A DNA stretch of 64,000 nucleotides from Eledone cirrhosa (taxonomy: Eukaryota): the NCBI GenBank assembly GCA_964016885.1, contig OZ024743.1:187302001-187366000 (forward strand), given 5' to 3'. The notes beneath the pieces are model-generated. The model made no database searches. It was not told where the DNA came from and worked only from the letters and a program-made list of their open reading frames with translations. Position 1 is the first letter of the stretch. Every line of letters begins with the position of its first letter. The translations under genes and the position numbers were made by a program. Shown here in pieces: positions 16,697 through 51,853 of the stretch.

Positions 16697-17081
16697 ACCT
16701 ATTCCATGTGTCTAACACCCATAGGTGTACCTACAAAGTCAGAAAAGAGCCCAGCTCCCATGACATTTGGAAGCATCTTTTCACACTCAGAGTTGCTGAA
16801 GCATAGAACAAACTACCTGCGTCGGTTGTTAAGTGTCGGGACACTGCATCCATCAAAACTTCCATGCTTCCCGAAATTCGCCAACACTGCACCTGATATT
16901 CCAGCTCCATACACACGCATGTATGTGTCTGTGTGTATATAATGACTCATACACTGTTCACTTTCCTGACATTTGTACATTATTCTATGTACTCTACATG
17001 CACCTTTGATGAGTTGTAGTGCACCTGAGCGTTATACACAATTATTTCATTATTATTATTATTTTTATTTTTATTATTATT
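16697..17081 (+). mobile_element. 3' fragment of a CR1/L2-type LINE ending in (ATT)n
   Basis: Frame not in the ORF track: KHLFTLRVAEA*NKLPASVVKCRDTASIKTS, matching the CR1 C-terminal FFxxRVxxxWNxLPxxVV motif. A short 3' UTR and ATT repeats follow. Confidence 0.75.
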
Positions 17082-20000
17082 GGTCTGATCGGACGTCTTT
17101 TTGCTCGCTCTCGTAAGTCTCTTTATTTACCTATCATAAATTATTTATTGTTAAATTTTTGTTGTTGTGTAAGGGATATAGGCCCTTGGACTTTGCCTTG
17201 TGAGGGGGAAAGTATAATATTTGGGCCTTTTGGTCCAAATATTTGAACTTTTTACATTTAAAAATTATCGAAAAAAAAACCAAAACATGGCTGAGCCATG
17301 CCCCCCAGTGATATCTCTGCTGTTACAACGACCTAAAAGTTGAGAAGAGGGTTACGGTGAACACAGAAATCGATACAACAAACACCACCACAAACAACGT
17401 GAACAAAGACAGCATTGACAACAACACTGAGAAAACTAATTTTGAAAAAAATGACCACACCAACCACAACAGTAACCGCGACAACAAAAATACAGACGAC
17501 AGAAAAAATGACAACAAATGCAACAACAATATTAACACCACTAACATGAAAACAAATAGCGACAACACCAACAGCAAGAGAACAACAACAACAGCGGCAC
17601 CAAAGACACAACCAACGGCAACAGTGATAACAGCAACAACATCAACAACAACATTTGTAGTAGTAGCAACAGCACCAACAACAAGACCCGTAGCAGTAGT
17701 AGCAGCGGCAATAATGATGCCACTGAAAAAGGGACCAACGTAGAAACAGTCCTGATCACAGAGGAGGAGTTGGCGGTCACCAGACACATTCTAACAAGAA
17801 ATGAATTTTCAGTGTCCTTGAAACCACCAACCGACTTCCTGGAGGTACAAGAGCCACACAGTGTCATACCGCATGATTGCCACGAAAACGCGTCGTGTGG
17901 AGAGAGCCTCGGAGGCCCAAGTCCAGAAGGCCTTGGGAACTGTGTGGGCACGAAAAACCCACATCACCCGTGGGAAGAAATATGCTACCGTCGACGTCCT
18001 TTTTGCTACCACCCAGGAAGCAAAATCGCAATAACTGAGGACCCCATGGAGTGATGACATAATATTAGTCCTGTTTTACTGCGGGAAAAAAATTGCAAAG
18101 GTCAGGGTAACCCAGATCCCAACCTACGTACCCGTGCCTTGGCTGGTCATGTCTGTTCTTGCGGGCATCGAGGTCCGATATTGGAATGGAGATGCTCATC
18201 CAAACTGATTAGGACTGCATCAGCGCTATTCCCGACGTAATAAAACTCGGGAATGGCTCCCAACTTCCCATATCTGTGGGAGGAAGGCGTCCAAAGTGTT
18301 TCAACTGTGGATCGAGGTCTTACCTCGGGGCTTTCTGCCGACAGAAAATAACAAAGGCGAAGGTCCGCCTCCTTCCAACGCCGGAACCGCTGCTATCAGA
18401 AACAGAGCAGTCAGCGAAAAAGTCAGGAGCTTCTACAGAGAGTAGGAGGACAACGTCCGTGGCGCCCACACCAAGGCCACGGACAACAAAAACAGCGGCG
18501 GAAACTGCAGCAACAGAAACAGTTGCACTAGCTGCACCTGTGCCAAGAACGACAGACCAAGTTCCACCACCACCACCACCAACAACAACAAAGACAAATG
18601 AGAGGGTAGAACTCATACCCCTCCCCGACCTCTCACAGTCAGACATGGAGTATGAGGTGGCTGAGGAGTGGAAAACGGTTGTCAACAAAAGAAAAAAAAC
18701 AAACGCAAAAACACCACAGCTTCTCCCCCCAAAAGCGAAGGCAAAGAAAGAGCGGTAAAGGCTGCAAAGAGACTTGCAGCAACACCACCACCATCACCAC
18801 CACCACCACCACAAGCAACACCATCAACAACTACCACACTCCCACCAGCATCACCAAAAACACCAACATCACAAGCACAACAAAGCACCCCACAACCAAA
18901 AGCAACAACAGGAAAACAGCAACAAAATCAACACCACCTTCCCCAAAAAATGTACACAGCCATAAATATCACACACAAAGGATTAATGGAACATATAAAA
19001 CAACACACAGACATTACAGACATAAATTATCACACCCCACCAACACCAAGAACATTACCAAAAAATATTAACATTGTAGAAATGAAACTCGAAGATTACA
19101 AACAATTAAAACAAAAATTCCCCAAGGCAGTTGGGGATTTCAGGGAGTCACTCTCCAAAAGAATCTATGCAGATATCATCTTGGAGACACCCATGACCAG
19201 ATAAAGGGACGGTTCTACTGTCCCTTCCCCACACGATCAAGGTAAATAATCCTTTATCACTTACCCCGTTCCTCACCCAGCATGGCCGTACTCAGAATAG
19301 GCAGTGTAAATGTACGTGGAAGCAGAGTCACCGGCTCAACGACCTCAGGTCCCTAAACATAGATGTGGTGACCATCAGTGAGACCAGAATCTCCGAAGCA
19401 TGAGCCTTTGCACCAATCTTCGGTGGCTACGATGAATACGCATCTCCCAGCCGTCCGGGATCGGGGGGGGGGGGGGGGAAGTTGCTGTGCTTTTTCTGAG
19501 AGGCTTGGATCTCGCCATACGCGCCATCTTCCTGGACCCAGAAGGTAAGTCGGTGGTGCCGGAAGTGACCGGCAGCAAAGGCAATGCTTTCAGGCTAATA
19601 GCTGTCTACGCCCAACTGGGGCTGGACGGCCAGATTTCTTCAGACGTCTAGAGACCTTTCTTGGAACGTCTCGCTCTTTAGTGTTAGTGGATGACTGGAA
19701 GGGTATCTTAGATGCACGCTGGGATTATGTGGGGCTAGTAGACTGGGGAGGAGGGTGTTAAAGCCTCAACAACCTGCTCAAATGTTTTGAAGTGTCTGAC
19801 AGGTATAGACTGGATTATCCGAATGTGCCAATGTGGACATGGGCAAACCGCATCGGGTCACCCAGATCGTATTTAGATAGGGTATTTTGTAGGGAAACAG
19901 ATAAGGCTAGTGTAGGTTGTCCACAATTTAAAGTAGTCGACTACACCGACCACAAATTTGTGATCTGTGAAGTTGAATTAGATAGACTTATTGGAAGCTG

Positions 20001-22810
20001 AACGCCTTGTTCCTGGCCCTTACAGAGACCAGATTAGGGAATTAGTTAAGTGTGCGTTGGCGGGTGCGAACGTCAACAACAGGTGGTGGTTTACCCTGAA
20101 AAGGGCTATCAGAGTAGAATTGATAAGGTTCAGCAAAGGAGTAGTGATAGAGGAAAATAGAATAGAGGGAGAGTTAGTTAGAAAGCTAGAAGAGGTGTTT
20201 AGGGCAGGCATCGCAACCGACGTGCTTGCGGCGAAATTGGCACTTGACTAATTCTTCAACTGCGTTGTCAGAGCTAGAGCGCGTGCTCTAAGACACGAGG
20301 GGACGAAAGCCGTTCAATGGGCCCGGATGGTGGAGGCGCGACGTGGCAACAAGTCCACAATTCGATCTTTGCCTGATCAAAACGGGTGCATGTTGCTAGA
20401 ACCCGAGCAGACGTGTGCGGCTTTTCTATATCACTTTGCTCAATTGTTCGGGAGTGGCGGCGGGCCGGATCAGAGTATGGACTTTGGTGCATAACTCGAC
20501 GGACATTCACGAACTCCACGACTGCAGCGCAGTGCTGCGAAAAGCCGATAACAGTAAGTGAAATACGGGAAGCGATGTCTGACTGCATGAGGGGTAAATC
20601 GCCAGGTTTGGATGGTCTGCCCTACGAGCTTTATGCGTACATGCCAGATATGTTTGGCGACTTCTTGGTAGATGTCTACTGCAACTGGCAGCAAAAGAAA
20701 AGCATTCCCAGTTTTGTGAGCCGCGAAGTGGTGGCGCTGCTGAGAAAACACCCGAACAAGGGGGACGTTATAGACAACTTCAGGCCCATAACTCTGCTAA
20801 ACGCAGAGTTTAAGATTTTGGTCAAGGTTATAGAAAAGAGATTGGCGCTTGTCATCGGTGAACTGGTGGGAAAGGTGAAGACATGCGCCATTCCGGACAG
20901 ATCCATCCACGACAACCTCCATCTCATGCGATACATCATAGAGAGTGTAGTTAAGGAACCTGGCACGGGTGGGGCCTTGATCATCTTGGATCAATCTAAA
21001 GCATTTGATAGGGTCAACCATCGGTACCTGGCTGCGGTCCTTGAGGCCACCGGTATCGGGCCCGTTTTTAGGGGCTCGATCGCTGCGATACACAGCGACA
21101 TCAGCTCGATTGTGAGGGTGAATGGTCACCTGTCGCAGCCATTCAGCATCATGCGTTCAGTCCGCCAGGGATGTCCCCTCTCATCCCTCTTGTATGTTAC
21201 TGCACAAATTGGAGACAATGATGGGGGTCTCACGCGAGCTGGGATGCGGGAGATCCGTGTCAGCACGTGTCCAGATGCTCGGTACCACTCTCAAGGAATA
21301 CGAAGCGGTGACAGGAGCAAAGATATATCAGGAAAAGTCGGTGGGCTTCCAACTTGGCACTTGGAGAGGCAAGCCCATGCCGTCCGACAGCGTCATGGGC
21401 GCTGGACGGAAGGACTGGTTAAATTGCTCGGGTTCTGGTTCGGTGCGGACCTCCAGATGGAGAAAAGTGGAGTGGGGTGACGAGCAGGGTGGCCTCTCTC
21501 ACCCAGAAATGAGGTGGCGAATGCGTACATTGCGTCCGTCATCTGCAACCGCCTGACCGTCGTACCTTGCCCTCGTCCAACTCTGACCAAAATGGAATGC
21601 CTTTTCTTTCGCTTTTTGTGGAAAAGACGTGCTCCCATGGTCAGACGTTCCATCTGTTGTCAACACCCGTAGCATGGAGAACTAGGCATGCCGTTGCTGA
21701 TGTGCGCAAAGATGCGCTGAAGCTGCGACATCTCTGGTGCTTCCTTGATGGTGAACAGGTGTGGTCACCGTTTGCCAGACGTGCTTTTCCCCAGCTCGTC
21801 TCCTTGACGGAGCTGCAGTCCTGGATCAGGAAAAGACCGAGGGATAGCGCTTGGAAGCTGGAATGTCTCCAAGCGCTCACCGCCCTCTACCAGCTGGGTA
21901 CTAGTAACGGTGGAACATCCACCTCGGCTTTCTATAGAGGGCTAGTGGAGGGGAAGAGCGACGACATTCTCGGGGAGACTCTGGGCATCGAAGACGATCA
22001 GCTGTTCGCTCTCTTCAAGAGAACTTTCAGCCCGCGGCCTATGGACAACTTCCAGAAAACCTTGGCCTGGCAGTGCTACCGGGGAGCGTTCCCGCTTCGA
22101 CATTGGCTCTACAGCACGGAAGTGCCGTCAGCCGAACCTGTCTAAGATGCGCACAGAGTGACGAAACAGTTGTGCAGGCACGCGTTCAGTGTCCGAGCAT
22201 TGCTGACTTGTGGAGCTATGCTGAACATTTGCTGTCATGTGTAGGACGGATCCCGTTATCGACTGAGTTCATTTTGCAGATAACCCGCCGTCCTCCTTTA
22301 AGGAGGAGGAAGGGCAGGCAGTTTTCATCTGCCTGGTGGCCATGGCGAAGGGGGGATTGTGTGGTGGACAAGATTGAAAGGGTTGAAGCGGACACTTTCC
22401 TCTCCGGCCAATCCCTGATTAACTTTTTCAAGTTACACTTGAAGAGGAAAATCAGGGTGGAGAGGCAAGTGCTGTCTTCTAGTAAGTTTTCTGAGAGGTG
22501 GGTGAAAGTGGCGAGTCTGGTCCGAGTGAACGGGTCCGCTCTGAGACTGAGGAGTGGGAAAAGTGAGAGAGGGTGCTTGCCCTGGTGATCAGGGTGGCCG
22601 TGGTCTTTTATGTGGTTTTCACCACGAGTGACCCTCGGAGGTTTCCCCCTTCTTGGGGAATTTTTGTTGTTTGAATTTTTTTGGATTTCTAGCCCGATTT
22701 TGTTATAACCTGTTTACACGACCAAAACCCACTTTGTATGGTCCTGTACTGTTCTGTGCCGTCTCTAATGTTTTTCTCCGTGTCAGCCCTTGTGGCCAAT
22801 AAAGAAACCA
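17082..22810 (+). mobile_element. Tx1/L1-clade LINE copy 1, near full length, decayed
   Basis: ORF1 pieces (17357-19204) include a zinc knuckle RRPKCFNCGSRSYLGAFC. ORF2 from ~19282 has APE (SYLDR, TDHK), RT (KSPGLDGLPYE, FRPITLLN, DQSKAFDRV, RQGCPLS) and a C-terminal CLRC..C. AATAAA at 22798. (ATT)n on both sides. Confidence 0.92.
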
Positions 22811-22829
22811 TATTATTATTATTATTATT

Positions 22830-24227
22830 GTTCTTTGAGTCTCAGTCATTGATGTTATTTAACTGGAAAGTTTGTTGAAATGAATATCAAGCCACTACCT
22901 ACAGCCTCAGATATCCAAGACGTATCGTAGGGTTCTTGCTGTTCCCAGCAAGCATGCCTTTTGAAGTGTTCCAAAAAGCGGGACGGGACCAATTTTCTTT
23001 AACCATCCTTGGAAACACTTTGAGATAGTAGCTAGTGCGCCTATCACAATTGGGACCACTTTGACCTCATGGCAGTCCCAAATCCTTTTTACCTCCCACT
23101 TTAAGTCCTGGTATCGGTTAATTTTCTCCCTCTCCTTCTCTTGCACTCTCGTGTCAAATGGGCAGGCCACACCCACAATCAGGCACGATCTTTTTCCCTT
23201 GTCCAAAACCACCAGGTCAGGTCTGTTGTGTTCCAGTTTCTTGTCCGTCTGTATCCTAAAATCCCACAGTACCTTCACCTGATCGTTTTCTATCACCGAC
23301 TCTGGCTTATGCTCATCAGCCTCCAGAACGCCCAAATACTTGTATCGTTCTTCAGAGTCAATTTCCTTTATCATCTCACCTGTTGGTTCCTGGATTCCGT
23401 TGCTTCTGCTCAATTTACCCCTCTTCATCACAAGGACTCAACACTTACTAATACCAAATTGCATACGTATATCATTGCTGAAAATACGGACAGTGTCAAC
23501 AAGCACACCCAACACCTTCTCACTCTTTCCACAGAGCTTAAGATCATCCATGAAGAGGAGGTGATTGATGGTAAGCTCTCCCTTTCCCAACTTGTATCCT
23601 GCTCTCACTTTTCGCAGTATAATGGTCAGGGGGATCAGGGCAAGGACAAACAACAGAGGGGACAAACTATCTCCCTGGAAGATACCTCTCTTGATCTTCA
23701 CGCCTCCCAAGGATTCTCCAGTTGATGTCAACTCTGTCTCCCAGGACCCCATACTCCTGCCCAGCAACTGTCTGATGTTATCTGCCACCTTGAAGATCTC
23801 TAGGCTTTTGGTTATCCAAGAATGAGGTACCATGTCGAATGCCTTTTTGTAGTCTATGCATCCCATGGCAAGAGCAGTGTGTCTCCTCCAGCAATTCTTC
23901 ATTACCATCTTATCATAAGTAACTGGTCTTTTGTACCACGGGACTTCTTTCGGCATCCTTTCTCTTCGTCCGGTAACAAGTTGTTTATGTGGAGGTGATG
24001 GTAGATTTCCTCAGACACAATGCTTGTTAACAGTTTCCACATTAAGGACAGATATGTGATAGGTCTATAGTTGGTAACATCATTACCCTTGGTTCGGTCT
24101 TTCATTACCAAAACTGTGGTACCTTTTGTCAACCACTCTGGTACCTCACCTGACATCAAGCAGTCATTGAACATGGTTGTCAGTTTCGGGTGGAAGGATG
24201 TTATATTTTTAATCAAATACCCCTGCA
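22830..24227 (-). mobile_element. R4/Dong-type RLE retrotransposon, family A, copy 0; 5'-truncated with an internal deletion
   Basis: RT ([26 protein letters not shown]) is fused directly to the RLE domain (RPDLVV..RYQDL). Flanked by (ATT)n. Confidence 0.92.
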
Positions 24228-24251
24228 ATTATTATTATTATTATTATTATT

Positions 24252-27200
24252 CCTTGAATCTCAGTCATTGATATTGGTTAACTGGAAAGTCCGTTGGAAT
24301 GAATATCAAGCCATTACCTGCAGCCTCAGATATTCAGGACGTATCGGAGGGTTCTTGCTGTTCCCAGCAAGCATGCCTTTTGAAGCGTTCCAAAAAGCGT
24401 GAGGGGCCGATTTTCTTTAACCATCCCTGGAAACTTTTGGAGATAGTCCCCAGTGCGCCTATGACAATCGGGATCACTTTGACTTCATGGCATTTCCAAA
24501 TCCTTTTTACCTCCCACTTTAAGTCCTGGTATCGGTTAATTTTCTCCCTCTCCTTCTCTTGCACTCTCGTGTCGAATGGGAAGGCCACATCCACAATCAG
24601 ACACGATCTTTTTTCTTTGTCCACAACCACCAGTTCAGGTCTATTGTGTTCCAGTTTCTTGTCCGTCTGTATCCTAAAATCCCACAGCACCTTCACCTGA
24701 TCGTTTTCTATCACCGACTCTGGCTTATGCTCATACCATTTCTCAGAATGTGGTAAATTGTTTACTTTGCACAGGTGCCAGTGGATCACCCTGCCCATCA
24801 CATCATGTCTCCAGCCCTTATAGTGGGTCTGGGCTAGGTGTTTACACTCGGATACAATGTGAGCCACAGTCTCCTCTCTCTCTCCACAGATCCTGCACAG
24901 TGGGCTAGCCTCCTCCTTGTAAATATGGTGTTTCAACCACTTCGTTTTGAGGGCCTGCTCCTGCGCAGCCATTAACATTCCTTCTGTAGCCTTTTTGAGG
25001 TCTCCTCTTCTCAACCTGTTCCATGTCTGTGGATCTCTAAATTCAGTTTTCTCAAAGAAGGTACTATGAAGGGATTTTCCCCGAAGGCTGCTCTTTCTCC
25101 TTGATGTTATTTCCTCCTTGGACATCCCCTGGCCTATTGTCCCCTACTTCAGTACAGTTCTGAGCATTGGCTCCTTACTATCAGTCACGTATTTGTATAG
25201 GTTGTTTTTCTCCATCTGATCTCCTTAGGTAGAGTCTATCGACATCACTCCTCTTGTGGAACATGTTGTAGATAGTCAATAGCTTCCTAGTCTTCCTATC
25301 CATTTCTTTTTGTTCAGCAACATTCCATCTCAGAATTCCCGCACTGTACCTAATAATAGACACAGCTCGGGAATTTACTGCACTTATGGCATTTCTGCTG
25401 TTCAGATGTGACTTCAATATGCTCCTTAGTCTCCGAATGTATTCAGTTCTTAACAATTCCTTCATTTTTTTGTTCTTTATGCCATCAGCCTCCAGAACGC
25501 CCAAATACTTGTATCCTTCCTCAGAGTCAATTTCCTTTATCACCTCACCTGTTGGTATCTGGATTCCGTTACTTCTGCTCAACTTACCCCTCCTCATCAC
25601 AATGACTCCACACTTACTAATACCAAACTGCATACATATATCACTGCTGAAAATACGGACAGTGTCTACAAGCACATCCAACTCCTTCTCACTCTTCCCG
25701 AAGAGCTTAAGATCGTCCACGAAGAGGAGGTGATTGATGGTAAGCTCTCCCTTTCCCAACTTGTATCCTGCTCTCACTTTTCGCAGCATATTGGTCAAGG
25801 GCATCAGGGCAAGGACAAACAACAGAGGGGACAGGCTATCTCCCTGGAAGATACCTCTCTTGATCTTCACGCTTCCCAAGGATTCTCCAGTTGATGTCAA
25901 CTCTGTCTCCCAGGACCCCATACTCCTGCCCAGCAACTGTCTGATGTTATCTGCCACCTTGAAGATCTCCAGGCTTTTGGTGATCCAAGAATGAGGCACC
26001 ATGTCAAATGCCTTTCTGTAGTCTATCCATCCCATGGCAAGATCAGTGCGTCTCCTCCTGCAATTCCCCATTACCATCTTATCAATAAGTAACTGGTCCT
26101 TTGTACCACGTGACTTCTTTCGGCATCCTTTCTGTTCGTCCGGTAACAAGTTGTTTGTGTGGAGGTGATGGTAGATTTCCTCAGACACAATGCTCGTCAA
26201 CAGTTTCTACATTATGGACAGACATGTGATAGGTCTATAGTTGGTAACATCATTACCCTTGATTCGGTTTTTCATTATCAGAACTGTGGTACCTTTTGTC
26301 AACCACTCTGGCACCTCACCCGACACCAAGCAGTCATTGAATATGGCTGTCAGTTTCGGGTGGAGGGATGTTAAATGTTTAATCCAATACCCCTGCACAC
26401 CATCTGGGCCTGGTGATTTCCAGTTGGTTAGTTTTTTGGCCTGCCCCTTAAGAGTTTCAACTGTGATACTCAAATCAGTTTGTTGGTGTGCCTGCTCACC
26501 GATCTCCCTCTGTACTGTCTCAATCCACCCTGCCTGGTCATTATGTCTAACATCCTGCTCCCATATTCCTCTCCAGAATGTTTTAGTTTGTTCCGCCTCA
26601 GGGATCAAGTCGTTGCCTCTTTCTTTCCCCTGAAGCTGTCCAAACAGCATCTTCTGGTTGTTGTCGAACATGCGGTTCTGTTTATACTGACTGACTCTGT
26701 TCTCGTATCGCCTGATTTTTGCACTCTTTGCTACAATGCGTTGCTTCAGTTCCTCTATGATAATATTTAGCCTTTTCCTCCTAGTTTTGTACTTTATTTC
26801 CAGTCTATTTTTAGTGCCTATGTTTTTTAGTGTCCCATTCAGTAGTGACTCAAGCTTTCCTATGTCATTTCTCATTTCCTTGATTTGACCACTCAATCGT
26901 TTCTTCCACCAAGGCTCTGCTCTTTCTTGTCTGTTGTTTCCTCTCGCTTTTATACCAAGTAGTTTCCTCACCGTATTTGCTGTTGCTTTGAGGATATTGT
27001 TGCACTGGTGAAGGCTCCTCGCCTCAAGGTATGGGATGACTTTGTTTACCTTAGCTGTTGTTTCTTTTAACTTTTTCCTGTCTACAAATCTTAGGTTCAT
27101 AGGTCTCCCACTATCATTGTTCAATTCATCTACCACTAAATTTAGGATGTCAACCGAATCTTGTCCTAGCCCGTCAGCATTCATCTCCTCAGTGGCCGTA

Positions 27201-29750: not shown

Positions 29751-29792
29751 ATTATTATTATTATTATGATTATTATTATTGTTATTGTTATT

Positions 29793-34336: not shown

Positions 34337-34343
34337 TATTATG

Positions 34344-34390
<47 letters not shown>

Positions 34391-36948: not shown

Positions 36949-36971
36949 TTATTATTATTATTATTATTATT

Positions 36972-39900
36972 GGCGACCTACGTAGTAAATCGTATCATCG
37001 TGAGCTCCGCAAAGGTTTGTTATTTCCGTTTGTTAAAAATTGCCATTTATGGAAAATGTTATTGTTAACTTTTTATAACCACACATACATTGTTTTCCGA
37101 AAAGGACACCCAAAAAGATTGCGGCCTTGTGCCCAAAATTTTAACTTTTATTATTATCCAAAAATTTCTTTGAAAAAAAATGGCTAATTCCCCTCTGCAC
37201 GAAGCAGCTGAAAGCCTTCCTCACAAAATAACACCTCACACAGACACCACCATTGTAAATGTTACTACGTTTGCCAACACAAAAAAAATATAAGCAGTAG
37301 CAATATTTTAAATTTGTCTCAGGCAGACATTCATTTCCCGCCATTACCAATGACTGCAGGTGTTAAAGCCTCCACCACCACCACCACCGCGACAACCACC
37401 ACCCCCACCACCACCGCGACAACAGAAACAAAAGAAGAAAAAAATAAATTAACTCGTGATGTCGAAATGAAATCAAGCAAAATGGACTCTTCCGCACCAA
37501 AGACGACTGACGTCACCACCACCACAACTGAAACTAAAATTAAGATTAACACAAATAACGATAGCAACAACAACAACAATGACATTATAACCCCCCCCCC
37601 CCCTCAGTTTCGCCATCGTAGCAAAACAATTCGAAGCATTCACGGTAACTCAAGAGGATTTAGAAAATGCCAAACAAATGGTAAAGAAAGATGGGTACAG
37701 GGTCAGCCTCACCCCCCCCACATAATAAAATGGAGCATCGGCGCCTATGCACCGTGTCGTATAGAACAATAAATGTAAAATCGCGCCGAGTGGAACGGGC
37801 ATCCGAGTCCCAAATCCAAAAAGCTTTGGGACATGTGTGGGCAAGAAAAACCCACATCAGACGTGGGCAAAAGTATGGAACCGTGGATATGTTCTTTGAA
37901 ACACCAGAGGAGGCTAGAGAACACTCCATGGCCCCATTAAAAAGTGACGACTTCACACTCGTCCCAAGCTATTGTGGCCAGAGACTCGTAAAGATCAGGG
38001 TGACCCACGTTCCACCGGCCATCGAAATTCCCTGGCTAATAGCGGCTGTCCTCGCCGGCATCGTAGCCAACACGAAAATAATAGCAATAGCAAAAGAAAA
38101 GCAGGAAAACTGGTCCGGATCTGGGATGGAGCTCCTGATCCAAGCGGACCAAAAAAGCATTGACGAGATCCCAGAGGTAATAGACCTCACTGACGGCAGC
38201 CACCTCACGGTAATTGTCGAGGGCAGAAGACCTAGGTGTGTTGTTTGTGGTGAAGGAACCCACCTAAGGGCTTTCTGCCATCAGGCTAAAAGGTTGAGGC
38301 CACCTCTCCTACCCACCCCAGTGACACAACCATCAACACCACCAGTAGCAGAGATGGCAGCAACAACTGTAGCAGCAACAACAGAAGCAACTATAACAGC
38401 AACAACCCCAGCAACAGTAGCAAAACCAACACCACCACCACCACCAGCAAAACCAACACCACCACCACCCAACGCTTCAGAACTAGCACCAGCGCCTACA
38501 CCATCCACCACGCCACAACCAAAAGTAACGGCTGTGGAGGATTTTGCACTCCCCGGCCTATCACAACTGGAGACAGATTGTGACGACGCGGAGTGGGAAA
38601 CGATATCCGGAAAAAAAAAAGAAACCAAAAAAGAAAAAATTCTCTTCCTTCCCCCTCCAAAAACAAACTGGAGACGTTGAGGGTGGTCCCGCGAGAACTA
38701 GGATGCGGAAGATCTGTGTCAGCATATGCCGACGATGTCACCGTAGTGGTGTCGAACGCCAAACACATCGAGGCGATCGGCACTACACTAAGAGAATACG
38801 AAGCGGTGACAGGAGCAATGATCAACCAGGAAAAGTCAGTGGGCCTGCAGCTCGGCACCTGGAGAGGCAGGTCCATGGCGTCCAACAGCGTCGTCGGGCG
38901 CTGGACGGACGGACCGGTTAAATTGCTAGGGGTCTGGTTCGGTCCAGACCTCCAGACGGACAAAAACTGGGACGAGGTGACGAGCAGGGTGGCTTCTCTC
39001 ACCCAGAAATGGGCCGAGAGGAAGCTATCCCTGAAAGGTCGAGCGGAGGTGGCTAACGCGTACATCGCGTCCGTCATCTACTACCGCTACCGCCTGACCG
39101 TCGTACTTTGTCCTAAGCCCCGCCTGACTGCGCTGGAGCGTTTGCTCTTTCGCTTCTTGTGGAAGGGACGCGCTCCGATGGTCAGGCGGTCCATCTGCTG
39201 TCAACACCCGCTACGTGGAGGGCTGGGCATGCCGTGGCTGATGATGCGCAGACACGCGCTCAGGCTACGACATCTCCACCTCTTCCTCGACGGTGATCAG
39301 GTGTGGTCGCCGTTTGCTAGACACGTTTTTCCCCAGCTCGTCTCCTTGACGGAGCTGCAGTCCTGGGTCAAGCGAAGACCGAGAGGGAGCGCTTGGAGAC
39401 TGGAATGTCTTCAGGCGCTCACAGCCCTCGACCAATCGGGCAATGTGATCGGTGGAAACTCCACCTTGGCGTTCTATAGGGGATTAGTGGAGGGGAAGAG
39501 CGACGACGTACTTGGAGAAACTCTAGGCGTCGACGAAAATCAACTAGCCAATCTCTTCGGAAGGACTTTCGGGCCGGGGCCTATGGACAACTTCCAGAAA
39601 TCCCTGGCCTGGCAGTGCTACCGAGGAGTTTTGCCAGTTCGGGATAAACTCTACAGGCATGGAGGTGCCGTCAGCCGGGCATGTCCGAGATGCGCGCAGG
39701 GCGACGAAACCGTCCTGCACGCACTCGTCCAGTGTCCGAGCATTGCTGACTTGTGGGTTTATGTCGAACACCTGCTGTCACGTGTAGGACGGATCCAGCT
39801 ATCAGCTGAGTCCATCGTGAGGATTGCCCCGCCCCCTACCTTTAGCCGGGAAGGGCAGGCAGTTTTTATCTGTCTGGTGGCCATGGCGAAAGAGATAGTA

Positions 39901-42900
39901 TGGTGGACACGTTTGAAAGGGCTGAAGACGAGCACTTTCCTCTTCGGTGATGCCCTGATTAACTTTTTCAAATTTCAACACCATCAACACCACCAGTAGC
40001 AGAGATGGCAGCAACAACTGTAGCAGCAACAACAGAAGCAACTATAACAGCAACAACACCAGCAACAGTAGCAAAACCAACACCACCACCAGCAAAACCA
40101 ACACCACCACCACCCAACGCTTCAGAACTAGCACCAGCGCCTACACCATCCCCCACGCCACAACCAAAACTAACGCCTGTGGAGGATTTTCCACTCCCCG
40201 GCCTATCACAACTGGAGACAGATTGTGACGACGAGGAGTGGGAAACGATATACGGAAAAAAAAGAAACCAAAAAAGAAAAAATTCTCTTCCTTCCCCCTC
40301 CAAAAACAAAATACAGAGGGAAACAAATAAACTAAGCAACAAAAAAGTTAGGACAGATATGCCACCATCCACACCAGCATCACCAACCCCATCAACCCAA
40401 ACACCAACACCATCACCATCATTAACTCCAACACCACCATCACCTACACCACAAAAGTCACCAAAATGCGAAACAGAAACAAACCCACAACAAACGCAAA
40501 CAAAACAAAACAACCAAAACGATACACTCTACACAGCATTACATTTGAACAACAAGCAATTATTACACTACATCCAACACAACACCAGCATCACAGAAAA
40601 AGACTACACAACAACCCCAAAATTCACACCACCTCCACACATACAAATCACTCGCATCACACAGAAAACGTACATGACACTAAAACAAAAATTCCCCAAA
40701 GACATCGGAGACTTCCGACAAGCACTCTCCAGGAGGATTTATAAGGACATCCTTCCTGAGGAGGCCACAAGCAGTGAAAAGGATGGAAAAACCGTCCTTC
40801 CCCTACGAGAAGTAAGGTAAGTGGTCTTTCCCATCTTTTCCACTCCTTTTCAACATGACCTCACTCAGAATAGGCAGCATAAATGCGCGTGGCTTGGGGT
40901 CGTCATGGAAGCAGGGCCACCTGCTCAACGACCTCAGGTCACTAAACATAGATGTAGTGGCCATCAGCGAGACCAGAATCTCCGAAGCACAGGCTTTCGC
41001 ACCGATCTTCGGTGGCTACGATGTCTACGCATCTCCCAGCCGTCCGGGATCGGGGGGAGGAGTTGCTGTGCTTTTTCGGAGAGGTTTGGATCTTGCCATA
41101 CGAGCCATCTTCCTGGACCCAGAAGGTAAGTTGGTGGTGCTGGACGTGACCAGCGGAGACGGGCAAGCTTTCAGGTTAGTGGCCGTCTATGCCCCGACAG
41201 GAGCAGGGCGGCCTGATTTCTTCCGGCGTCTGGAGACCTTTCTTGGAACGTCCCGCTCTTTAGTGTTAGTGGGCGATTGGAACGGGATCTTAGATGCACG
41301 CTGGGATTGTGTGGGATTAGTGGATAGGGAAGGAGGGTGCAAGAGTCTCACCAACCTGCTCAGACGTTTTGAACTGTCTGACAGGTACCGAATGGATTTC
41401 CCGAATGTACCAATGTGGACTTGGACAAATCGCATAGGGTCATCCAGATCATATCTAGATAGAGTATTTTGTAGGGAAATAGATAGGACTAGCATAGGCT
41501 GTCCACAATTTAAGATAGTCAGCTACACGGACCACAAATTTGTGATCTGTGTGCTTGACTTAGATAGGCTTCATAGGCGAGGACCCGGCTACTGGAAGCT
41601 AAACGCGTCCTTACCAGCGCGCAAGGCCTACAGAGACCGGATTAGCGAACTAGTTAAGCGGGCCTTGACGGGGGCCATCGTCAACAACAAGTGGTGGTTT
41701 GCTCTGAAAAGAGCAATTAGAATAGAGTCCATTATGTTTAGTAAGACTTTAGCAATAGAGAAAAATAGAGCAGAGGGAGAACTAGTTAGAAAATTAGATG
41801 AGGCGCTTAGCAAAGGCATCGCGACCGACGTACTTGCGGCGAAATTGGCCCTTGACAAATTCTTCAATGCAAAACACGAAGGTTGCGTTGTCAGAGCTAG
41901 GGTGCGTGCTCTCAGACACGAGGGGACGAAAGCCGTTCAATGGGCCCGAGTGGCGGACGCGCGTCGTGGCAACAAAACCACGATCCGGCCTTTGGTGAAC
42001 CACGACGGGCGCATGCTACTCGATCCCGGGCAAATGTGTGAAGCTTTTCAGCGACACTTCGCTCAACTGTTCGGGGGCAGTGGCGGGCCGGATCGAGGGA
42101 TGGACTTTAGTGTCTACCTCGACGGACTGCCGCGGCTGTCGGCCACTGAGGCGGAGTGTTGCGAAAAGCCGATAACAGCCGCTGAAGTACGGGAGGCAAT
42201 GACTGGTTGCACAAGGGGTAAATCGCCTGGTTTGGATGGTCTGCCCTATGAACTTTACGTACAAATGCCAAACTTGTTCGGAGGCCTCTTGGCGGACGTC
42301 TACTGCAACTGGCAACAGAACGGGAGAATTCCCAGCTCTGTGGGCAGAGGAGCGGTGGCGCTGCTGAGAAAGGATCCGAACAAGGGGGATAACATAGATA
42401 ATTTTAGGCCCATAACTCTGCTAAACACAGAGTTCAAGATTTTGGCCAAGGTGCTAGCAAAGACGTTGGCGCTTGTCGTTGGTGGTCTGGTGGGAGAGGC
42501 ACAGACATGCGCCATTCCCGACAGATCCATCCACGACAACCTCCACCTCATGCGATACATCGTAGAGAGGGTAGCTAGGGAACCTGGGACGGGTGGGTCT
42601 TTGATCATTTTAGATCAGTCGAAAGCCTTCGATACGGTCGACCATCGTTGCCTAGAGGCAGTCCTGAGGGCGGCTGGCTTTGGGCCCGTCTTCAGAGGCT
42701 GGATCGCTGCCATGCACAGCAACATCTGCTCTGTAGTGAGAGTGAACGGTCACCTTTCGGAACCGTTCAACATCATGCGCTCGGTCCGCCAAGGATGTCC
42801 CCTTTCGTCCCTATTGTACGTATTGACTCTCGAGCCATTACTGCACAAACTGGAGACGTTGAGGGGGATCCCGCGCGAACTAGGATGCGGAAGATCCGTG

Positions 42901-43819
42901 TCAGCATATGCCGACGATGTCACCGTAGTGGTGTCGAACGCCAAACACATCGAGGCGATCGGCACTACACTAAGAGAATACGAAGCGGTGACAGGAGCAA
43001 TGATCAACCAGGAAAAGTCAGTGGGCCTGCAGCTCAGCACCTGGAGAGGCAGGTCCATGCCGTCTAACAGCGTCGTCGGGCGCTGGACAGACGGACCGGT
43101 TAAATTGCTAGGGGTCTGGTTCGGTCCAGACCTCCAGACGGACAAAAACTGGGACGAGGTGACGAGCAGGGTGGCTTCTCTCACCCAGAAATGGGCCGAG
43201 AGAAAGCAATCCCTGAAAGGTCGAGCGGAGGTGGCTAACGCGTACATCGCGTCCGTCATCTACTACCGCTACCGCCTGACCGTCGTACCTTGTCCTAAGC
43301 CCCGCCTGACTGCGCTGGAGCGTTTGCTCTTTCGCTTCTTGTGGATGGGACGCGCTCCGATGGTCAGGCGGTCCATCTGCTGTCAACACCCGCTACGTGG
43401 AGGGCTGGGCATGCCGTGGCTGATGGTGCGCAGACACGCGCTCAGGCTACGACATCTCCACCTCTTCCTCGACGGTGATCAGGTGTGGTCGCCGTTTGCT
43501 AGACACGTTTTTCCCCAGCTCGTCTCCTTGACGGAGCTGCAGTCCTGGGTCAAGCGAAGACCGAGAGGGAGCGCTTGGAGACTGGAATGTCTTCAGGCGC
43601 TCACAGCCCTCGACCAATCGGGCAATGTGATCGGTGGAAACTCCACCTTGGCGTTCTATAGGGGATTAGTGGAGGGGAAGAGCGACGACGTACTTGGAGA
43701 AACTCTAGGCGTCGACGAAAATCAACTAGCCAATCTCTTCGGAAGGACTTTCGGGCCGGGGCCTATGGACAACTTCCAGAAATCCCTGGCCTGGCAGTGC
43801 TACCGGGGTGCTTTGCCAG
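36972..43819 (+). mobile_element. Tx1/L1-clade LINE copy 2, internally duplicated and deleted, 3' end lost
   Basis: Starts right after (ATT)n. ORF1 with RRPRCVVCGEGTHLRAFC (CCHC). Duplicated segments 38329-38667 / 39980-40310 and 38668-39637 / 42850-43819. Confidence 0.92.
37691..38680 (+). CDS. Tx1 ORF1 (gag-like) central part: RRM-like region, CCHC knuckle, Pro/Thr linker. The C-terminus is in 40005-40820
   Basis: ORF track and homology to the ORF1 fragments of copy 1. Confidence 0.75.
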   Translation: MGTGSASPPPHNKMEHRRLCTVSYRTINVKSRRVERASESQIQKALGHVWARKTHIRRGQKYGTVDMFFETPEEAREHSMAPLKSDDFTLVPSYCGQRLVKIRVTHVPPAIEIPWLIAAVLAGIVANTKIIAIAKEKQENWSGSGMELLIQADQKSIDEIPEVIDLTDGSHLTVIVEGRRPRCVVCGEGTHLRAFCHQAKRLRPPLLPTPVTQPSTPPVAEMAATTVAATTEATITATTPATVAKPTPPPPPAKPTPPPPNASELAPAPTPSTTPQPKVTAVEDFALPGLSQLETDCDDAEWETISGKKKETKKEKILFLPPPKTNWRR

Positions 43820-43890
43820 GCGTCTTCGGCCAGGCGCATTCGCCTGGCAACCCTAACATGGTCTCTTGCGAGCTAACTTCAAAACGGTAA
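40855..43890 (+). CDS. Tx1 ORF2 (APE endonuclease + reverse transcriptase), 1011 aa open; the last ~23 aa come from the adjoining LTR
   Basis: SINARGL, ISET, VYAP, GDWN, SYLDR, TDHK, KSPGLDG, DQSKAFD, RQGCPLS, AYADD. Homology to Tx1 stops at 43819. Confidence 0.9.
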   Translation: MTSLRIGSINARGLGSSWKQGHLLNDLRSLNIDVVAISETRISEAQAFAPIFGGYDVYASPSRPGSGGGVAVLFRRGLDLAIRAIFLDPEGKLVVLDVTSGDGQAFRLVAVYAPTGAGRPDFFRRLETFLGTSRSLVLVGDWNGILDARWDCVGLVDREGGCKSLTNLLRRFELSDRYRMDFPNVPMWTWTNRIGSSRSYLDRVFCREIDRTSIGCPQFKIVSYTDHKFVICVLDLDRLHRRGPGYWKLNASLPARKAYRDRISELVKRALTGAIVNNKWWFALKRAIRIESIMFSKTLAIEKNRAEGELVRKLDEALSKGIATDVLAAKLALDKFFNAKHEGCVVRARVRALRHEGTKAVQWARVADARRGNKTTIRPLVNHDGRMLLDPGQMCEAFQRHFAQLFGGSGGPDRGMDFSVYLDGLPRLSATEAECCEKPITAAEVREAMTGCTRGKSPGLDGLPYELYVQMPNLFGGLLADVYCNWQQNGRIPSSVGRGAVALLRKDPNKGDNIDNFRPITLLNTEFKILAKVLAKTLALVVGGLVGEAQTCAIPDRSIHDNLHLMRYIVERVAREPGTGGSLIILDQSKAFDTVDHRCLEAVLRAAGFGPVFRGWIAAMHSNICSVVRVNGHLSEPFNIMRSVRQGCPLSSLLYVLTLEPLLHKLETLRGIPRELGCGRSVSAYADDVTVVVSNAKHIEAIGTTLREYEAVTGAMINQEKSVGLQLSTWRGRSMPSNSVVGRWTDGPVKLLGVWFGPDLQTDKNWDEVTSRVASLTQKWAERKQSLKGRAEVANAYIASVIYYRYRLTVVPCPKPRLTALERLLFRFLWMGRAPMVRRSICCQHPLRGGLGMPWLMVRRHALRLRHLHLFLDGDQVWSPFARHVFPQLVSLTELQSWVKRRPRGSAWRLECLQALTALDQSGNVIGGNSTLAFYRGLVEGKSDDVLGETLGVDENQLANLFGRTFGPGPMDNFQKSLAWQCYRGALPGVFGQAHSPGNPNMVSCELTSKR

Positions 43891-45776
43891 CAAATAACTT
43901 TACTTCATTCTTTCATCTACTCATGGACATGTCAACTATACTATTCTACATAACTTCAACTTGTTAATTAAACTTTAAACACACAACTGAGTCTTTTGTT
44001 ATATTCATACACACCAGTATTTTGTTATAAGTAGTGACCCCGAAAAAAAAAAAAAAAATAACAGGTTCTGGTGTTGTGTGAGTATGGAAAAAAGAAAATT
44101 AATTAGCAGTACCCCATTTTCGTTGGAATGCGTCGACTAAAATTTCGAATACACAGCAAACTTTATTAACAAACTAGGAAAAATTCGCTGACACAGAAAC
44201 GAACACACGCACATGTGAAATTCTCGTTCAGACAGATTCTTTTTCAACATGAACATTTATTTTTGCTGAATCTCAACTATTGCTTATTCTTTCCACCAAG
44301 TTTTTTTCATCGTTCACAAAAAATTGAACTCGCCATATTTGTTATACCAAGTGAAGCCTTTCTGTCTTTTTCATCATATCACGTTCACATACAAATTTTT
44401 CAAAATGGCTGCCAACGACCTGTTGCACTATCATTTTCGCGCGATTTTCTCGCGCAAAGAAATATATTTTTTTTTCAACTTGACTTTAACCTTGTTTCGG
44501 CACCTGTGGGGAGCACACATCTCGACTCACTGAGATAACCCACGCCATAGATAATGTTTCTTGCCAAGGTCTCTCCAGCCTTAAGATATATTCTCCTATT
44601 TGCCGGTTTAAAAATTTACCACGTAAATTTGTCGTTGAAAATTGCGCATTTATTCAGAATGCTTATTTCATTGGTCGCTGGCCTCTTGACCCTTCCAGGC
44701 CAACGCATTCTCAACATCGACCATCAACTTTGGCTGTTATTTCTAGCACTTTGCACAACTCATTTTTTCTGAGAAAATTTTTACTGTGAATTTAAACAAC
44801 ATCGAATACGCTCACTCCGCGAGACAACAACTCATTTTTTCTAACTTTTTACTGTGATTTGAAACAACTTTGAAAGAGTTATCTCACTCCGCGAGACAAC
44901 ATCAACAACCAGCTTCATCTTTGCTTTAGACAACAGCAACAACCAAAACCAGCAGAACAAGACAGAGAATTTATTTTTGCAGCACTCCTGTGAGAAAATC
45001 CCTTCGGAGGTTGGGAATTTCACGTTATACCACAGACCAGAAACCACCTGCATACGTTCTCTGGAACACACTTTCTTTCCTGCTGTCATGTGATTGCACC
45101 TCTGTGAACTGTATTTTGAACATTTGAACTTTGACCTCTTCTTTTACTTTGATTACATTGTATCTTTGAGTGATGGATAGATAGATGTCCAGTCGTTCTC
45201 TGGCCAAGAGCGGTTGGCTGCTTGATATCTATCATTGATTTTTGCATGCATATATTTTGCTGTTTTCCTTTTATTGCAAACATTATTTTTTTCATAATTT
45301 TCATGCCTGGACTTTGGTGTTACATGCTCGCCATCTTACTCCATACATGGTTCATTCGATTTTTATATTTTAAAAATCTGGCGGAAGATAATGTAGCAAG
45401 AGTTACCTCCCTTATGACAATCACATCACCGCTCTCTAGACAGGAAGTAGCTGGAGTTACTTCCTGTTGGGGTGGCAGAACCCCTTTTGTCACTTCCGTC
45501 TTGAGACCCTATAAAAGGGAAACTCAGAGCGATCTCTCTCTCATTTTGCCCTCTTCTCACCTGCCTGGCCCTTCGGCCAGGCGCATTCGCCTGGCAACCC
45601 TAACATGGTCTCTTGCGAGCTAACTTCAAAACGATAACAAATAACTTTACTTCATTCTTTCATCTACTCATGGACATGTCAACTATACTATTCTACATAA
45701 CTTCAATTTGTTAATTAAACTTTAAACACACAACTGAGTCTTTTGTTATATTCATACACACCAGTATTTTGTTATA
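43824..45776 (+). mobile_element. Non-autonomous Gypsy-like LTR element: truncated 5' LTR 43824-44029, complete 3' LTR 45392-45776
   Basis: 206-bp direct repeat with 2 differences seen. PBS-like tagtgaccccga at 44032-44043 (cf. TGGTGACCCCGA, tRNA-Trp). Purine tract ggcggaagataa before TGTAGCAA. TATAAAA at 45510. No pol ORF. Confidence 0.82.
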
Positions 45777-48678
45777 GATGTGATCTTTTTCAAGTATGGG
45801 AGGTGGTTGATGCTCCCACCAATTCTTTTGATGGGGCAGGTCAAAATGCTTACACATTATCCAATGTATGTATTGTGCAGCTCTGTCATGCCTGTTTAGG
45901 TATTTGGTTGGAGCTATAGTACTGCACATTGAAATTATATGATCAATGGTCTCTGGTTGTTTTTTACATACACGGCATAATGGGTTGCATCCATTTTGTA
46001 TTATGTTGGCTTGGTAATTTTGTGTTGGCAGACACTGATCTTGTGCTGATATAATCAGTCCTTCAGTCTCCGATTTCAGTCCAGAGGATGCCAACCACTG
46101 ATCGGTTAAAGTTTTGTCAACATCAGGATTGTTAGGTCTTTCTGGGTATTTTCCATGCAGAGGCTTTTCTTGCCATTTCTTAGCCAGTTTCTGTAGCAGT
46201 TCTTTCTTTTCAGTTACTTTTACCTGCTTTGCTTTTTCTGTGTTTTCCATTTCAGCAGTAAATGGGACTTCTGAAATTTGTAGTCCATTTCTGTATCTTT
46301 GTGCATCTTTTGTAATGGAGTATGATCTTTTGATGCATTCGTGTTTCAAAACGAGTTTGATCATCCAATCATGTCCCTTAGATATGTAGATAATCCAATT
46401 GTTGGAGTTTTCAACGCAATATCTAACTGGATTAACCCACGTCCTCCTTCTTTCCTAGGGAGATATATTCTATCTGTATCTGCCTTAGGGTGATGCATTC
46501 TGTGCATGGTTAAGAATTTTCTAATTTTTGTATCGAGCCTACGGATCTATGTGCTTGACCAGTTGATGACATTGTAATTGTAGGTTACTACTGGTATGGC
46601 AAGCGTGTTTATTGCATCGATCCTATTCCTTGCATTCAATTCCGTTCTTAAGATTGCTCTTACTCTGCGGTAACATTCCTTCCTTATCCTTTCCCTCATT
46701 GTCGAGTGCTTGATTCCGTCTCCTTCACAAACACCTAGATATTTGTAAGTTTCCTCTTGATCAGGTTCTCTTATCACATTCCCCCGATTAATACTAATGT
46801 CTGAACTTTTCAGCAGCTTTCCTCTGGTGAACGTTGCTTTGGCGCATGTATCTAGTCGAAACTCCATTTTAATGTCATCACTGAACTGCTCCACAGTGGA
46901 TAATAGCCCTTGCAATTGTTCATCATTTTTTGCAAATAGTTTCAGGTCACCCATGTAGAACAAGTGATTAATGGTTTTGTCATAGACTTTATATCCATGT
47001 TTTGTTTCATTGAGCATTTTACTTAATGGTATAAGTGCGATGCAGAATAAAAGCGGTGATAAAGAGTCACCCTGAAAAATCCCACAATTAATATTAACTT
47101 CTCCAGCTTCCAGTGATGTTGTTTCACTATTCAAAAGGAGTGTTGTTTTCCATGTCTTCATACTGAATGACAAGAACCTCCTGACAACGGGGGATATTTT
47201 GAAAATCTCTAAACATTTTTCAATCCAACTGTGTGGCAAACTATCGAATGCTTTTTTATAATCTATCCAAGCAATTGATAGATTTTTGTGTCTATTATGA
47301 CAATCTTCTAGTATCATTTTGTTAACCAAAATCTGATCCTTACAGCCATATGAGCCTCGTTTACACCCTTTCTGCTCATTGGGAAATGGGTCATTTGTTA
47401 TCAGGTTGTCATATGTATATTCAGTTAGGACTGATGTTAAAATTTTATACATTGTGGTCAAGCAAGTTATCGGTCTGTAATTTTTGGTATTGTTTGTCTC
47501 ATCATTCTTCGGAAGCAGGAATGTAATGCCGTTAACTAGCCATGATGGTATCTTTTCTGGCTCCTTAACTATTTCATTGTAAAGTTGGGCTAACAGCTCA
47601 TGAGACTCTGTGAAGGCATTTATCCAAACATTTAATATTTTGTCTTTTCCTGGGGATTTCCATTTGCTGGTTTTTCTAAGAGCCAAACGCAACTGTTCAA
47701 CTGTTATATTTTCCCATATTTATTCCTCAAGGTGAGCTGTATCTTTCATTTGTCTGTCTATCCATGGGGCATGTATATAATGAACTTTTTCTTCGGCCCA
47801 GATCTTTTCCCAGAATTCTTGCACTTCCTCCTTGGGTGGTATTGATTTAGCAGTTATTGTTGACTTTCCAATTTTTCTGTAGAAGTTTCTTTGGTTGTTT
47901 TTGAACATATTATTTTCCTTATAGAACCTAGATCGTTTTCCAAAGCGCCTTATACGAGCAGCTTTGGCCGACACTTTTTGCTTGATTATTTCTATCAGCA
48001 TGTCTATGTCACTTGTTGATTTTATACTGTATTTTCTTTTCAATTTTCTAAGTTTAGTTTGTTTAACATGTTCACCTACTTTGTAGTTTGTTAAAATTTC
48101 TATGTCAGATCGGAGAAGGTTTATTTGGCGATTGATGTTCTCTTGCCAAGTAGATTTCTTGTGGGAATTCATTTGTTTTTTTCATTTTCACTCCACATAA
48201 GTGAGTGGTGACTTTAGCCGATGCATAATAAAGATTATTTAAATCAGTAATGTTTAGTTTGTTTGTGATGATAATGTTTTTTAGAATTATGTTAGTCTTG
48301 TGTATTATCTTTTGGTTCTGTTTGGAGTTCTGGATCTTAGGGAGGGTTTCTCATTCCCCATGTCAGATTCTTTCATTTTCATCCATTCGATCATAATTTC
48401 ATCCTTCAAGTTGGCAAGTTCATTCTCATTCATTTCTTTATCATTTACGATCTCATTGTTTTCATTTTGAGTTTCATCTTGAGCATGCACTCCCTCCACT
48501 TTTTCGATCATTTCGTTAATTTGTTCTGTTGTCAGTGATTCCGCCCCAACCCTGGGATTCGAAGTGTTACAATTTACCTCGTTTTCACTGACACATGTTT
48601 CATTTTCCCTTCGCTGACTTTGTGCTAATAGCTTGATCTGATCAATTTCTATATCAGTTAGTAACTTTTTTTTAACAA
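45777..48678 (-). mobile_element. R4/Dong-type family B, copy 2; 5'-truncated, 3' end replaced by the LTR element
   Basis: Pieces 47720-48172, 46547-47692 and 45711-46364 closely match 34899-36948. (ATT)n at 48678-48713. Confidence 0.93.
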
Positions 48679-48710
<32 letters not shown>

Positions 48711-49376
48711 TTATAAAATTTGATGTTTATGCAACAATATAAAATTATTCAGCATAAAACATAAACAAGCTCTACATAATTTAAAAGATAAAGTCTGTGT
48801 GAAATAATGTAAGAGTGGAAAAAGCACTGTATTTCTAATCATGTCTAAAGACAAATATGCTGCAAACAAATTATCAATTTAATCAATGATATAAACAAGT
48901 TTATAAGGATTCAGTGACAATCATACAAATAAGAGCCCCTTTTATTTTCCCAACATTAAAGAATTCCCCCTGCTGTAAAAACAGTACAAATATGCAAACA
49001 AAATGGCCATCAGAAGACCATAATTTCTTTAATAAATACACTAAATAATTAGAAAACATTGCACACAATGTAATTGGAAAAGTTCCAAGAGATCTGAGAA
49101 AACCCACTACAGTAGGCAACATCTCCACCTTAGACAGAGTGGCTATTTATCAAATTTCTTGTATCAGAAACAAGTGCAAACATATTAAGTAATGTAGAGA
49201 AACACACATGAGTACCATGATGCCAGCTAATATACTAAAGGAATTATTAGTGTGCTGTACAACAGAAATACCCTTTCACTGTCTACAAGCACGAGTGGCC
49301 ATGAGCTTTTCCTTAGGCTCAGTTTCGTGCCATTCTATGTGATCATTATAGAAAATAAAGTGGCATTATGACATGA

Positions 49377-49558
49377 ATTGGCAGTACCAGTAGAGGGTCG
49401 GACGCCATGCTTTGACACATAGAGTTACGGCCCTTGTCATTCTGAGTTCAAATCCCGCCGAAGTTAACTTTGCCTTTCATCCTCACGGGGTCGATAAAAT
49501 AAAGTACCAGTAATCTACTGGGTTATTGCTGGCCTTGTGCCAATAGTAGAAACAATTA
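49377..49558 (+). mobile_element. tRNA-derived SINE, family 1
   Basis: Same A box, B box and core as 9576-9755. Confidence 0.9.
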
Positions 49559-51790: not shown

Positions 51791-51853
51791 TTGTTCGCCT
51801 TTTTTCATGAATATGTATATTATTATTGTTGTTGTCATTATTATTATTATTGC

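Follow-up and report, generated by a model that had tools for sequence, protein, structure and literature searches.

The 64,000-nt stretch of the Eledone cirrhosa genome analysed here (assembly GCA_964016885.1, 3.0 Gb; contig OZ024743.1, positions 187,302,001–187,366,000; hereafter the window) contains an array of retrotransposons of the Dong/R4 and Tx1 types, bounded by tracts of the trinucleotide repeat (ATT)n. Self-comparison, Pfam searches, translation and mapping identified eight copies of LINEs (long interspersed nuclear elements) as well as one small long terminal repeat (LTR) element between positions 17,082 and 48,678. Five of the LINEs are Dong/R4-type elements of two families (DongA and DongB), all on the minus strand, and three are Tx1-type copies, also of two families (Tx1A and Tx1B), all on the plus strand. 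From left to right, a CR1-type fragment (+) is followed by Tx1A (+), DongA1, DongA2, DongA3 and DongB1 (all −), and then by Tx1B material (+), the LTR element, which is an insert of 2 kb containing a direct repeat of 216 bp, and DongB2 (−) (Table 1).

The array had been noticed earlier from the sequence alone. The original prediction described seven ATT tracts separating seven LINEs, with five elements of the restriction-like endonuclease (RLE) class facing one way and both elements of the apurinic/apyrimidinic endonuclease (APE) class facing the other. All seven tracts were found, at or within 1–2 nt of where they had been placed, although tracts 1 and 4 are interrupted, and the first tract does follow a CR1-type 3' fragment whose tail it had been taken to be. 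The inventory of elements had to be revised, as seven tracts bound six intervals and the eight LINE copies are accompanied by the LTR element. The opposite orientation of the RLE copies (minus) and APE copies (plus) stands, but the APE copies number three. Truncated copies had been said to abut ATT directly; this is true of the three truncated Dong copies (junctions 24227|24228, 36948|36949 and 48678|48679) but not of the truncated Tx1B copy at 39980, which has no ATT.

Table 1. Features of the retrotransposon array, in positions of the window.
Feature	Position	Strand	Remarks
CR1-type LINE 3' fragment	16701..17048	+	tail is the first ATT tract; likely seed
ATT tract 1, interrupted	17049..17081	+	
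Tx1A, full-length, decayed	17082..22810	+	ORF1, APE-RT ORF2, AATAAA just before ATT tail
ATT tract 2	22811..22829	+	
DongA1, 5'-truncated Dong	22830..24227	-	internal deletion near 23307-23316
ATT tract 3	24228..24251	+	
DongA2, full-length	24252..29748	-	stops break the ORF
ATT tract 4, interrupted	29749..29792	+	right part is a fixed tail variant of the DongA3 subfamily
DongA3, full-length, youngest copy	29793..34336	-	ORF over three frames; RT, CCHC knuckle, RLE
ATT tract 5	34337..34389	+	
DongB1, 5'-truncated, second Dong family	34390..36948	-	
ATT tract 6	36949..36971	+	
Tx1B copy a	36972..39977	+	bases 1-1690 and 4225-5533 of the 5.9-kb full-length element
Tx1B copy b	39980..43819	+	bases 1352-5193 of the 5.9-kb full-length element
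Non-coding LTR element inserted in DongB2	43814..45776	+	cut 5' LTR 43814-44029, 3' LTR 45392-45776
DongB2, 5'-truncated	45777..48678	-	about 510 bp of 3' end and tail lost; 95.6% to DongB1
ATT tract 7	48679..48714	+	followed by single-copy flank
ORF, open reading frame; RT, reverse transcriptase.

A 3' tail alone proves nothing about targeting, and the junctions scored were therefore those at the 5' ends. The queries were pieces of the elements without flanking sequence, the 5' junctions were read elsewhere in the genome, and a junction was assigned to the repeat if it showed at least 10 matches in 12 positions. Each search scored the best 36–41 copies, of which 30 were fetched, and the window's own copy was dropped; the 1,160–1,554 first-look candidates for the four end queries are not copy numbers. 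DongA junctions were in AAT in 27 of 29 copies (one miss, one unresolved), and truncated DongA copies gave 21/21, two of these being units of one tandem duplication. The corresponding count for DongB was 24/29; among its misses, L088 has a tract at the boundary and L071 stops at a short interspersed nuclear element (SINE) inside the element. For Tx1B, 25 of 30 junctions were in ATT, with one unresolved and four misses, one of them again a SINE inside the element. Twenty of 29 Tx1A relatives were extended, and all 13 that reach the same full-length start base begin after ATT. Not one junction of the opposite polarity was scored among the DongA, DongB and Tx1B copies. Read by eye, a multi-unit AAT tract precedes 29 of 30 full-length DongA heads, and an AAT tract lies within ~50 nt of 26 of 30 DongB heads. 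The 5' junction of Tx1B has the single phase ATTATT|GG in 70/70 occurrences listed (the same locus is repeated among them, and variants with a single occurrence were not printed). By comparison, a CR1 control family with an ATT tail had 0 of 29 5' junctions in ATT, and the same score was reached at 1.3% (AAT) and 1.5% (ATT) of 4,893 control positions, which places the pattern well beyond chance. An initial query that gave 30/30 is not counted because it contained the ATT tract and was hence biased. Such a tabulation of flanks and orientation had been set beforehand as a test of the original prediction; the prediction passes it, and the CR1 control fails it, as it should.

The polarity was also examined at the ends of elements in 80 long loci, counting tracts of at least 4 units and including the focal copies. 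Dong ends were beside AAT in 152 of 154 cases and Tx1 ends beside ATT in 122 of 122. In one of the two Dong exceptions the tract flips strand just after the tail, and the other, at the 5' end of L267, is a true exception. Of 117 copies, 70 had a Dong or Tx1 as their nearest downstream element (DongA 19/29, DongB 20/29, Tx1A 17/29, Tx1B 14/30), compared with 1 of 29 for CR1, and 65 of these 70 neighbours obey the polarity rule. When ten loci chosen beforehand as array-like were extended to ~28 kb, four contained 23–26 kb of Dong and Tx1 sequence, and comparable arrays occur on many contigs. Mixed Dong/Tx1 arrays are how these families are normally arranged in the genome, and the one in the window is not the local curiosity that it had seemed. 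The earlier proposal that two endonuclease classes use one repeat with opposite polarity is supported for both Dong and both Tx1 families. One array (L246, at 117.85 Mb of another contig) contains a near-identical 2.5-kb unit of two truncated DongA copies present twice, which indicates that tandem duplication also adds to some arrays.

These results make it highly probable, in our judgement, that the LINEs of the window form a mixed, microsatellite-associated array: the two Dong (RLE) families lie in the repeat as (AAT)n and the Tx1 (APE) families in that repeat in its (ATT)n reading, likely because each endonuclease nicks its own strand. Genome-wide, the copies, among them Dong copies truncated at random 5' points, meet the repeat at both ends in a polarity fixed for the family, and most of them have another such copy as a neighbour. 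Target-primed reverse transcription provides an established basis for the priming that we envisage: each endonuclease would nick one particular strand of the tract, and the matching tail of the RNA would prime reverse transcription there, the nicked strand being AAT for Tx1 (tail AUU) and TTA for Dong (tail UAA). With every insertion a tract would be split and the new element's tail added, which would give the array one more target and let it grow from within. Because an insertion splits one tract into two, targets would accumulate where elements already sit. The chain in the window would have begun in the CR1 tail, grown over a long period (copies are 0.6–8% from their nearest relatives), and later been trimmed by deletions and struck by the LTR element.

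The ages of the copies are consistent with such growth from a CR1 seed. Divergence to the nearest sampled relative, which is an upper bound and depends on sampling, is 8.1% for the CR1 fragment, 7.9–8.7% for Tx1A, 5.2–6.3% for DongA1, 2.4% for DongA2, 0.6% for DongA3, 2.0% for DongB1, 0.9–1.7% for Tx1B and 3.3% for DongB2. The oldest parts are found towards the CR1 end and the youngest in the interior, which is the order that an array growing through repeated insertion into its own tracts should show. Median tail lengths are 8 units for DongA, 8 for DongB, 4 for Tx1A and 13 for Tx1B, compared with 2 for CR1, which indicates that tract material was gained, be it from tails, from target duplication or from slippage. 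Copies of the CR1 family end in an ATT tail, and their 5' flanks are random. Its longer relatives L178, L172 and L196 carry YADDTKLY and C-terminal motifs that we take to be hallmarks of the CR1 clade; the relatives do not reach the APE. CR1 tails also begin arrays at L160 and L290, although most CR1 tails do not.

The interval 36972–48678 consists of two fused Tx1B copies, the LTR element and DongB2 without its 3' end. Copy a of Tx1B has an internal deletion and has lost its 3' end and tail; in copy b an open APE-RT frame of 1024 aa runs to the junction, with ATT on neither side. ATT is missing at the 39977/39980, 43814 and 45776 junctions of the window array. Copies a and b differ at 16 of 975 shared bases. 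Since comparison with ten further members of the family gives 14–25 differences, a range that includes this value, the two copies likely inserted independently and became fused through a deletion. The LTR element has a stretch resembling a primer binding site after its 5' LTR, which has lost ~170 bp, and paired LTR matches 1.0–2.05 kb apart were found at several other loci.

A SINE that is abundant in this genome touches on the same question. It is present in the window at 58856–59042, 49374–49559 and 9012–9209 and in the array loci, and its ~25-nt end resembles the 3' ends of Tx1; it may be mobilised by Tx1. The SINE has an ATT tail, and in array loci all 50 of the 50 ends examined keep to the polarity of Tx1. 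Outside arrays, ATT lies upstream of only 7 of 25 copies, and the SINE shows ordinary target duplications. We rejected this SINE as a strict ATT-targeter on the strength of that 7/25, a count whose loci were partly picked beside CR1 tails and in which two rows represent one copy.

The polarity could in principle arise without any sequence-specific endonuclease, if AUU and UAA tails primed at any nick or break in an ATT tract and pairing fixed the orientation. Tail pairing does predict the polarity, and the behaviour of the ATT-tailed SINE in array loci fits it. However, the CR1 family has an ATT tail as well and none of its 29 junctions is in ATT, the SINE outside arrays is seldom preceded by ATT and makes ordinary target duplications, and the Tx1B junction is held to one phase. 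Judged by the CR1 and SINE controls, a tail of ATT does not suffice, which points to endonuclease specificity, and we consider priming at arbitrary nicks quite improbable. Even less credit, in our view very little, is due to an assembly artefact, or to tandem duplication or unequal crossing-over in place of serial insertion. The repeated unit in L246 illustrates such duplication, and among the public contigs listed none crosses the left junction: in contigs of four public runs at 15600–17400, repeat copies swamp the search, and the matches to the unique left flank, with 0–1 differences, end inside the CR1 fragment. On the other hand, the copies in the window differ by between 1.6% (Tx1B a and b) and 65% of amino acids (DongA and DongB), their truncation points differ, the right flank is single-copy in the assembly, and comparable arrays are found on many contigs.

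A different question is whether the 31 kb grew from one target. Two separate ATT arrays might have been joined at the 43814 deletion, as might one array and a solitary DongB2, and/or the seed might have been a plain microsatellite. At the 43814 junction the end of Tx1B is lost together with a tract, the end of DongB2 and ~170 bp of LTR, so that the deletion may be of any length; Dong or Tx1 adjoins just 1 of 29 other CR1 tails; and no convincing target duplication joins 16700 with 48714, an AT-rich match of 7 nt, close to 16690 and 48712, being too weak a candidate for a duplication around CR1 and the array. Nevertheless, the strand of the tracts is identical on both sides of 43814, the CR1 fragment is among the oldest parts of the array, and arrays beginning in CR1 tails recur at L160 and L290. 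Such a joined or differently seeded array seems unlikely to us. The CR1 tail remains the likely seed, and a single original target for the whole 31 kb is likely too.

Several observations weigh against serial, targeted insertion by both endonuclease classes. In the window, ATT is absent from two junctions where it was expected, after Tx1B copies a and b; deletion has probably removed it. Neither the public-run contigs, whose left-flank matches end inside CR1, nor a search of the assembly for a second copy of the right flank showed an empty allele. Each search covered the best-matching copies only, so the samples favour young elements; L044 and L055 are the two units of one tandem duplication; and four DongB and two Tx1B scored copies were also references, their start having been set after the tract. 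Truncated Tx1B copies score only 4/7, and of 7 Tx1A copies not reaching the full-length start, only one lies against a tract, which is degenerate. Tx1 may target the repeat more loosely, or later deletions may blur the picture. The nicking itself, and with it the strand specificity of the Tx1 APE and the Dong RLE for the repeat, is inferred. Moreover, the long ATT tract at 51818–51918 is unoccupied; like a second one at 52059–52087, it lies 3 kb from the array and is without Dong or Tx1, which indicates that ATT targets are not saturated.

The protein-coding regions agree with the two endonuclease classes. The DongA (1141 aa) and DongB (1184 aa) frames contain RVT_1 and the motifs CxxC..H..C, (R)HD/RRD and RPD..D..K, which we take to be those of a CCHC knuckle and an RLE of the PD-(D/E)xK type, and lack Exo_endo_phos; RT, knuckle and RLE motifs are thus in one ORF, with no APE. 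The two proteins share 35% amino-acid identity, and their best relatives of solved structure are R2 proteins. No copy in the window is intact, and open frames were found in copies elsewhere in the genome, L167, L231 and L256 among them; relatives of DongA3 at L231, L234, L235, L239 and L243 have open frames of 1140–1141 aa. Both Dong ends carry (TAA)n on the sense strand. The 5' untranslated region (UTR) of DongA2 includes three tandem copies of a 442-bp repeat (28009–29336; copies 92% identical). Most full-length DongB heads (L308–L337) match the DongA 5' UTR head, represented in the window by 28890–29748 and 33290–34336, with ~85–91% identity to DongA2 and 75–79% to DongA3, and three DongB copies have a DongA3-like head (86–88%). 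Shared heads in spite of 35% protein identity suggest that 5' UTRs may have been swapped between the DongA and DongB lineages. The DongB UTR of L252 also holds an apparent SINE 3' fragment.

In Tx1B, ORF2 has Pfam matches to Exo_endo_phos, RVT_1 and zf-RVT (APE, RT and zinc finger) with the APE catalytic motifs present, and its best relative of solved structure is human L1 ORF2p (E 6e-52; R2 6.5e-20). ORF1 has a CxxCxxxxHxxxxC knuckle and no significant Pfam match; its Atlas neighbours, at 0.91–0.93, are of the CCHC/ZCCHC3 type, which is a lead only. Tx1A has an RVT_1 match and is 76% identical to Tx1B. Homologue searches gave no clade names for Tx1, and none of the closest Dong homologues bore one, while one weak homologue is from Octopus sinensis; Dong/R4 and Tx1 are putative assignments resting on architecture, target and the motifs as we know them. 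A Tx1 variant (L163, L247, L244 and L285) combines the Tx1B ORF2 and 3' UTR (93–96%), from ~base 2150 onwards, with another 5' half, and its copies at L163 and L247 also begin after ATT. Internal deletions are frequent in young Tx1B copies (L152, L155, L158, L159, L161, L168, L267 and L269), and at L159 two Tx1B copies are fused without ATT, as in the window. L343 and L258 have a satellite-like tandem region beside an array, with units 67–81% identical to pieces of Tx1 ORF1.

Use of one multicopy target by an APE and an RLE element has precedents. R1 and R2 share the 28S ribosomal DNA. Keno (PMC4494074) and Utopia (PMC4640811) both occupy U2 snRNA genes. The host-gene targets of these pairs are destroyed by insertion, whereas here the tails renew a trinucleotide repeat. 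In the parts of the literature covered, on which these comparisons rest, TRAS and SART use one Bombyx telomeric repeat in opposite orientations and build arrays (PMC10088271), the same two-family arrangement, but both are R1-clade APE elements at telomeres, in contrast to an RLE and an APE element in interstitial, dispersed arrays. Insertion of Dong in TAA repeats has been published, including for the snail DongBg (PMC3812793), and the Dong of Bombyx mori, DongAg and DongBg have the same single ORF with RT, CCHC knuckle and RLE and the same TAA at both ends (PMC3812793, PMC3774820); the difference here is that two families, 35% identical in protein, have both target and 5' UTR head in common and build long mixed arrays. 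The hepatitis delta virus-like ribozyme shown for B. mori Dong (PMC3774820) was not found here by Rfam, which gave two chance-level matches in total, or by a strict descriptor, unvalidated by a positive control, that was blank in five UTRs. Microsatellite Tx1 families, including the telomeric Tx1-1_ACar, insert in simple repeats (PMC4494074, PMC10088271), Kibi in (TC)n and Koshi in (TTC)n (PMC3812793) and crocodilian families in (TTCC)n/(TTTC)n (PMC4494074). They have the same two ORFs, an APE-RT-zinc finger ORF2 and an RNA-binding/CCHC ORF1, but (ATT)n, held here in common with an RLE element of opposite polarity, is not among the targets described for them in the literature covered. No ATT-targeting Tx1 or mixed Dong/Tx1 array was found in the literature covered; Kojima and Fujiwara 2004, Repbase and the supplements of PMC4494074 are outside that scope and may describe one. 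The association of a Tx1 lineage with (ATT)n, the target of Dong, is itself real and well supported, and within the literature covered it appears to be new.

The mechanism of microsatellite targeting has been called not well understood (PMC3812793). The families described here offer a natural pair of unrelated endonucleases, one APE and one RLE, each represented by young copies with open frames; the prediction is that the two read opposite strands of a single 3-bp repeat. This makes that mechanism directly testable and is relevant to repeat-targeted gene insertion tools. Within this 3-Gb genome, arrays of the elements' own making hold a large part of these LINE families. Octopus vulgaris has recently active Dong-R4 and L1-Tx1 families and unexplained transposon hotspots (PMC13282606), and the arrays, if our interpretation is correct, could explain part of such hotspots in octopus genomes. 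In O. bimaculoides, a short-read study reported that Dong insertions absent from the reference were very few (PMC9115989); insertions inside arrays should be hard to map, which bears on the calling of insertion sites. We also entertain, tentatively and without regarding it as the probable case, a self-renewing niche shared by an (ATT)n-specific cephalopod Tx1 and two ancient Dong lineages, in which each family's tail would be the other's landing site, with perhaps thousands of polarity-ordered arrays and neighbours exchanging modules. The notion of module exchange draws on the 5' UTR head shared by DongA and DongB (78–90%) and on one Tx1 ORF2 found with two 5'/ORF1 halves.

The window is rich in TA microsatellites. 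Outside the array, its positions 1–1850 contain a decayed RT-like region with a weak RVT_1 match, and positions 60300–62000 are a very AT-rich repeat region of the TTAAAA type. Broken RT-like frames on the minus strand at 56182–58639, with ATT-rich low-complexity sequence on their 5' side, have no significant Pfam match and carry motifs that are presumably Penelope-type. A Tx1B copy elsewhere in the genome (L029) adjoins sequence related to this region.

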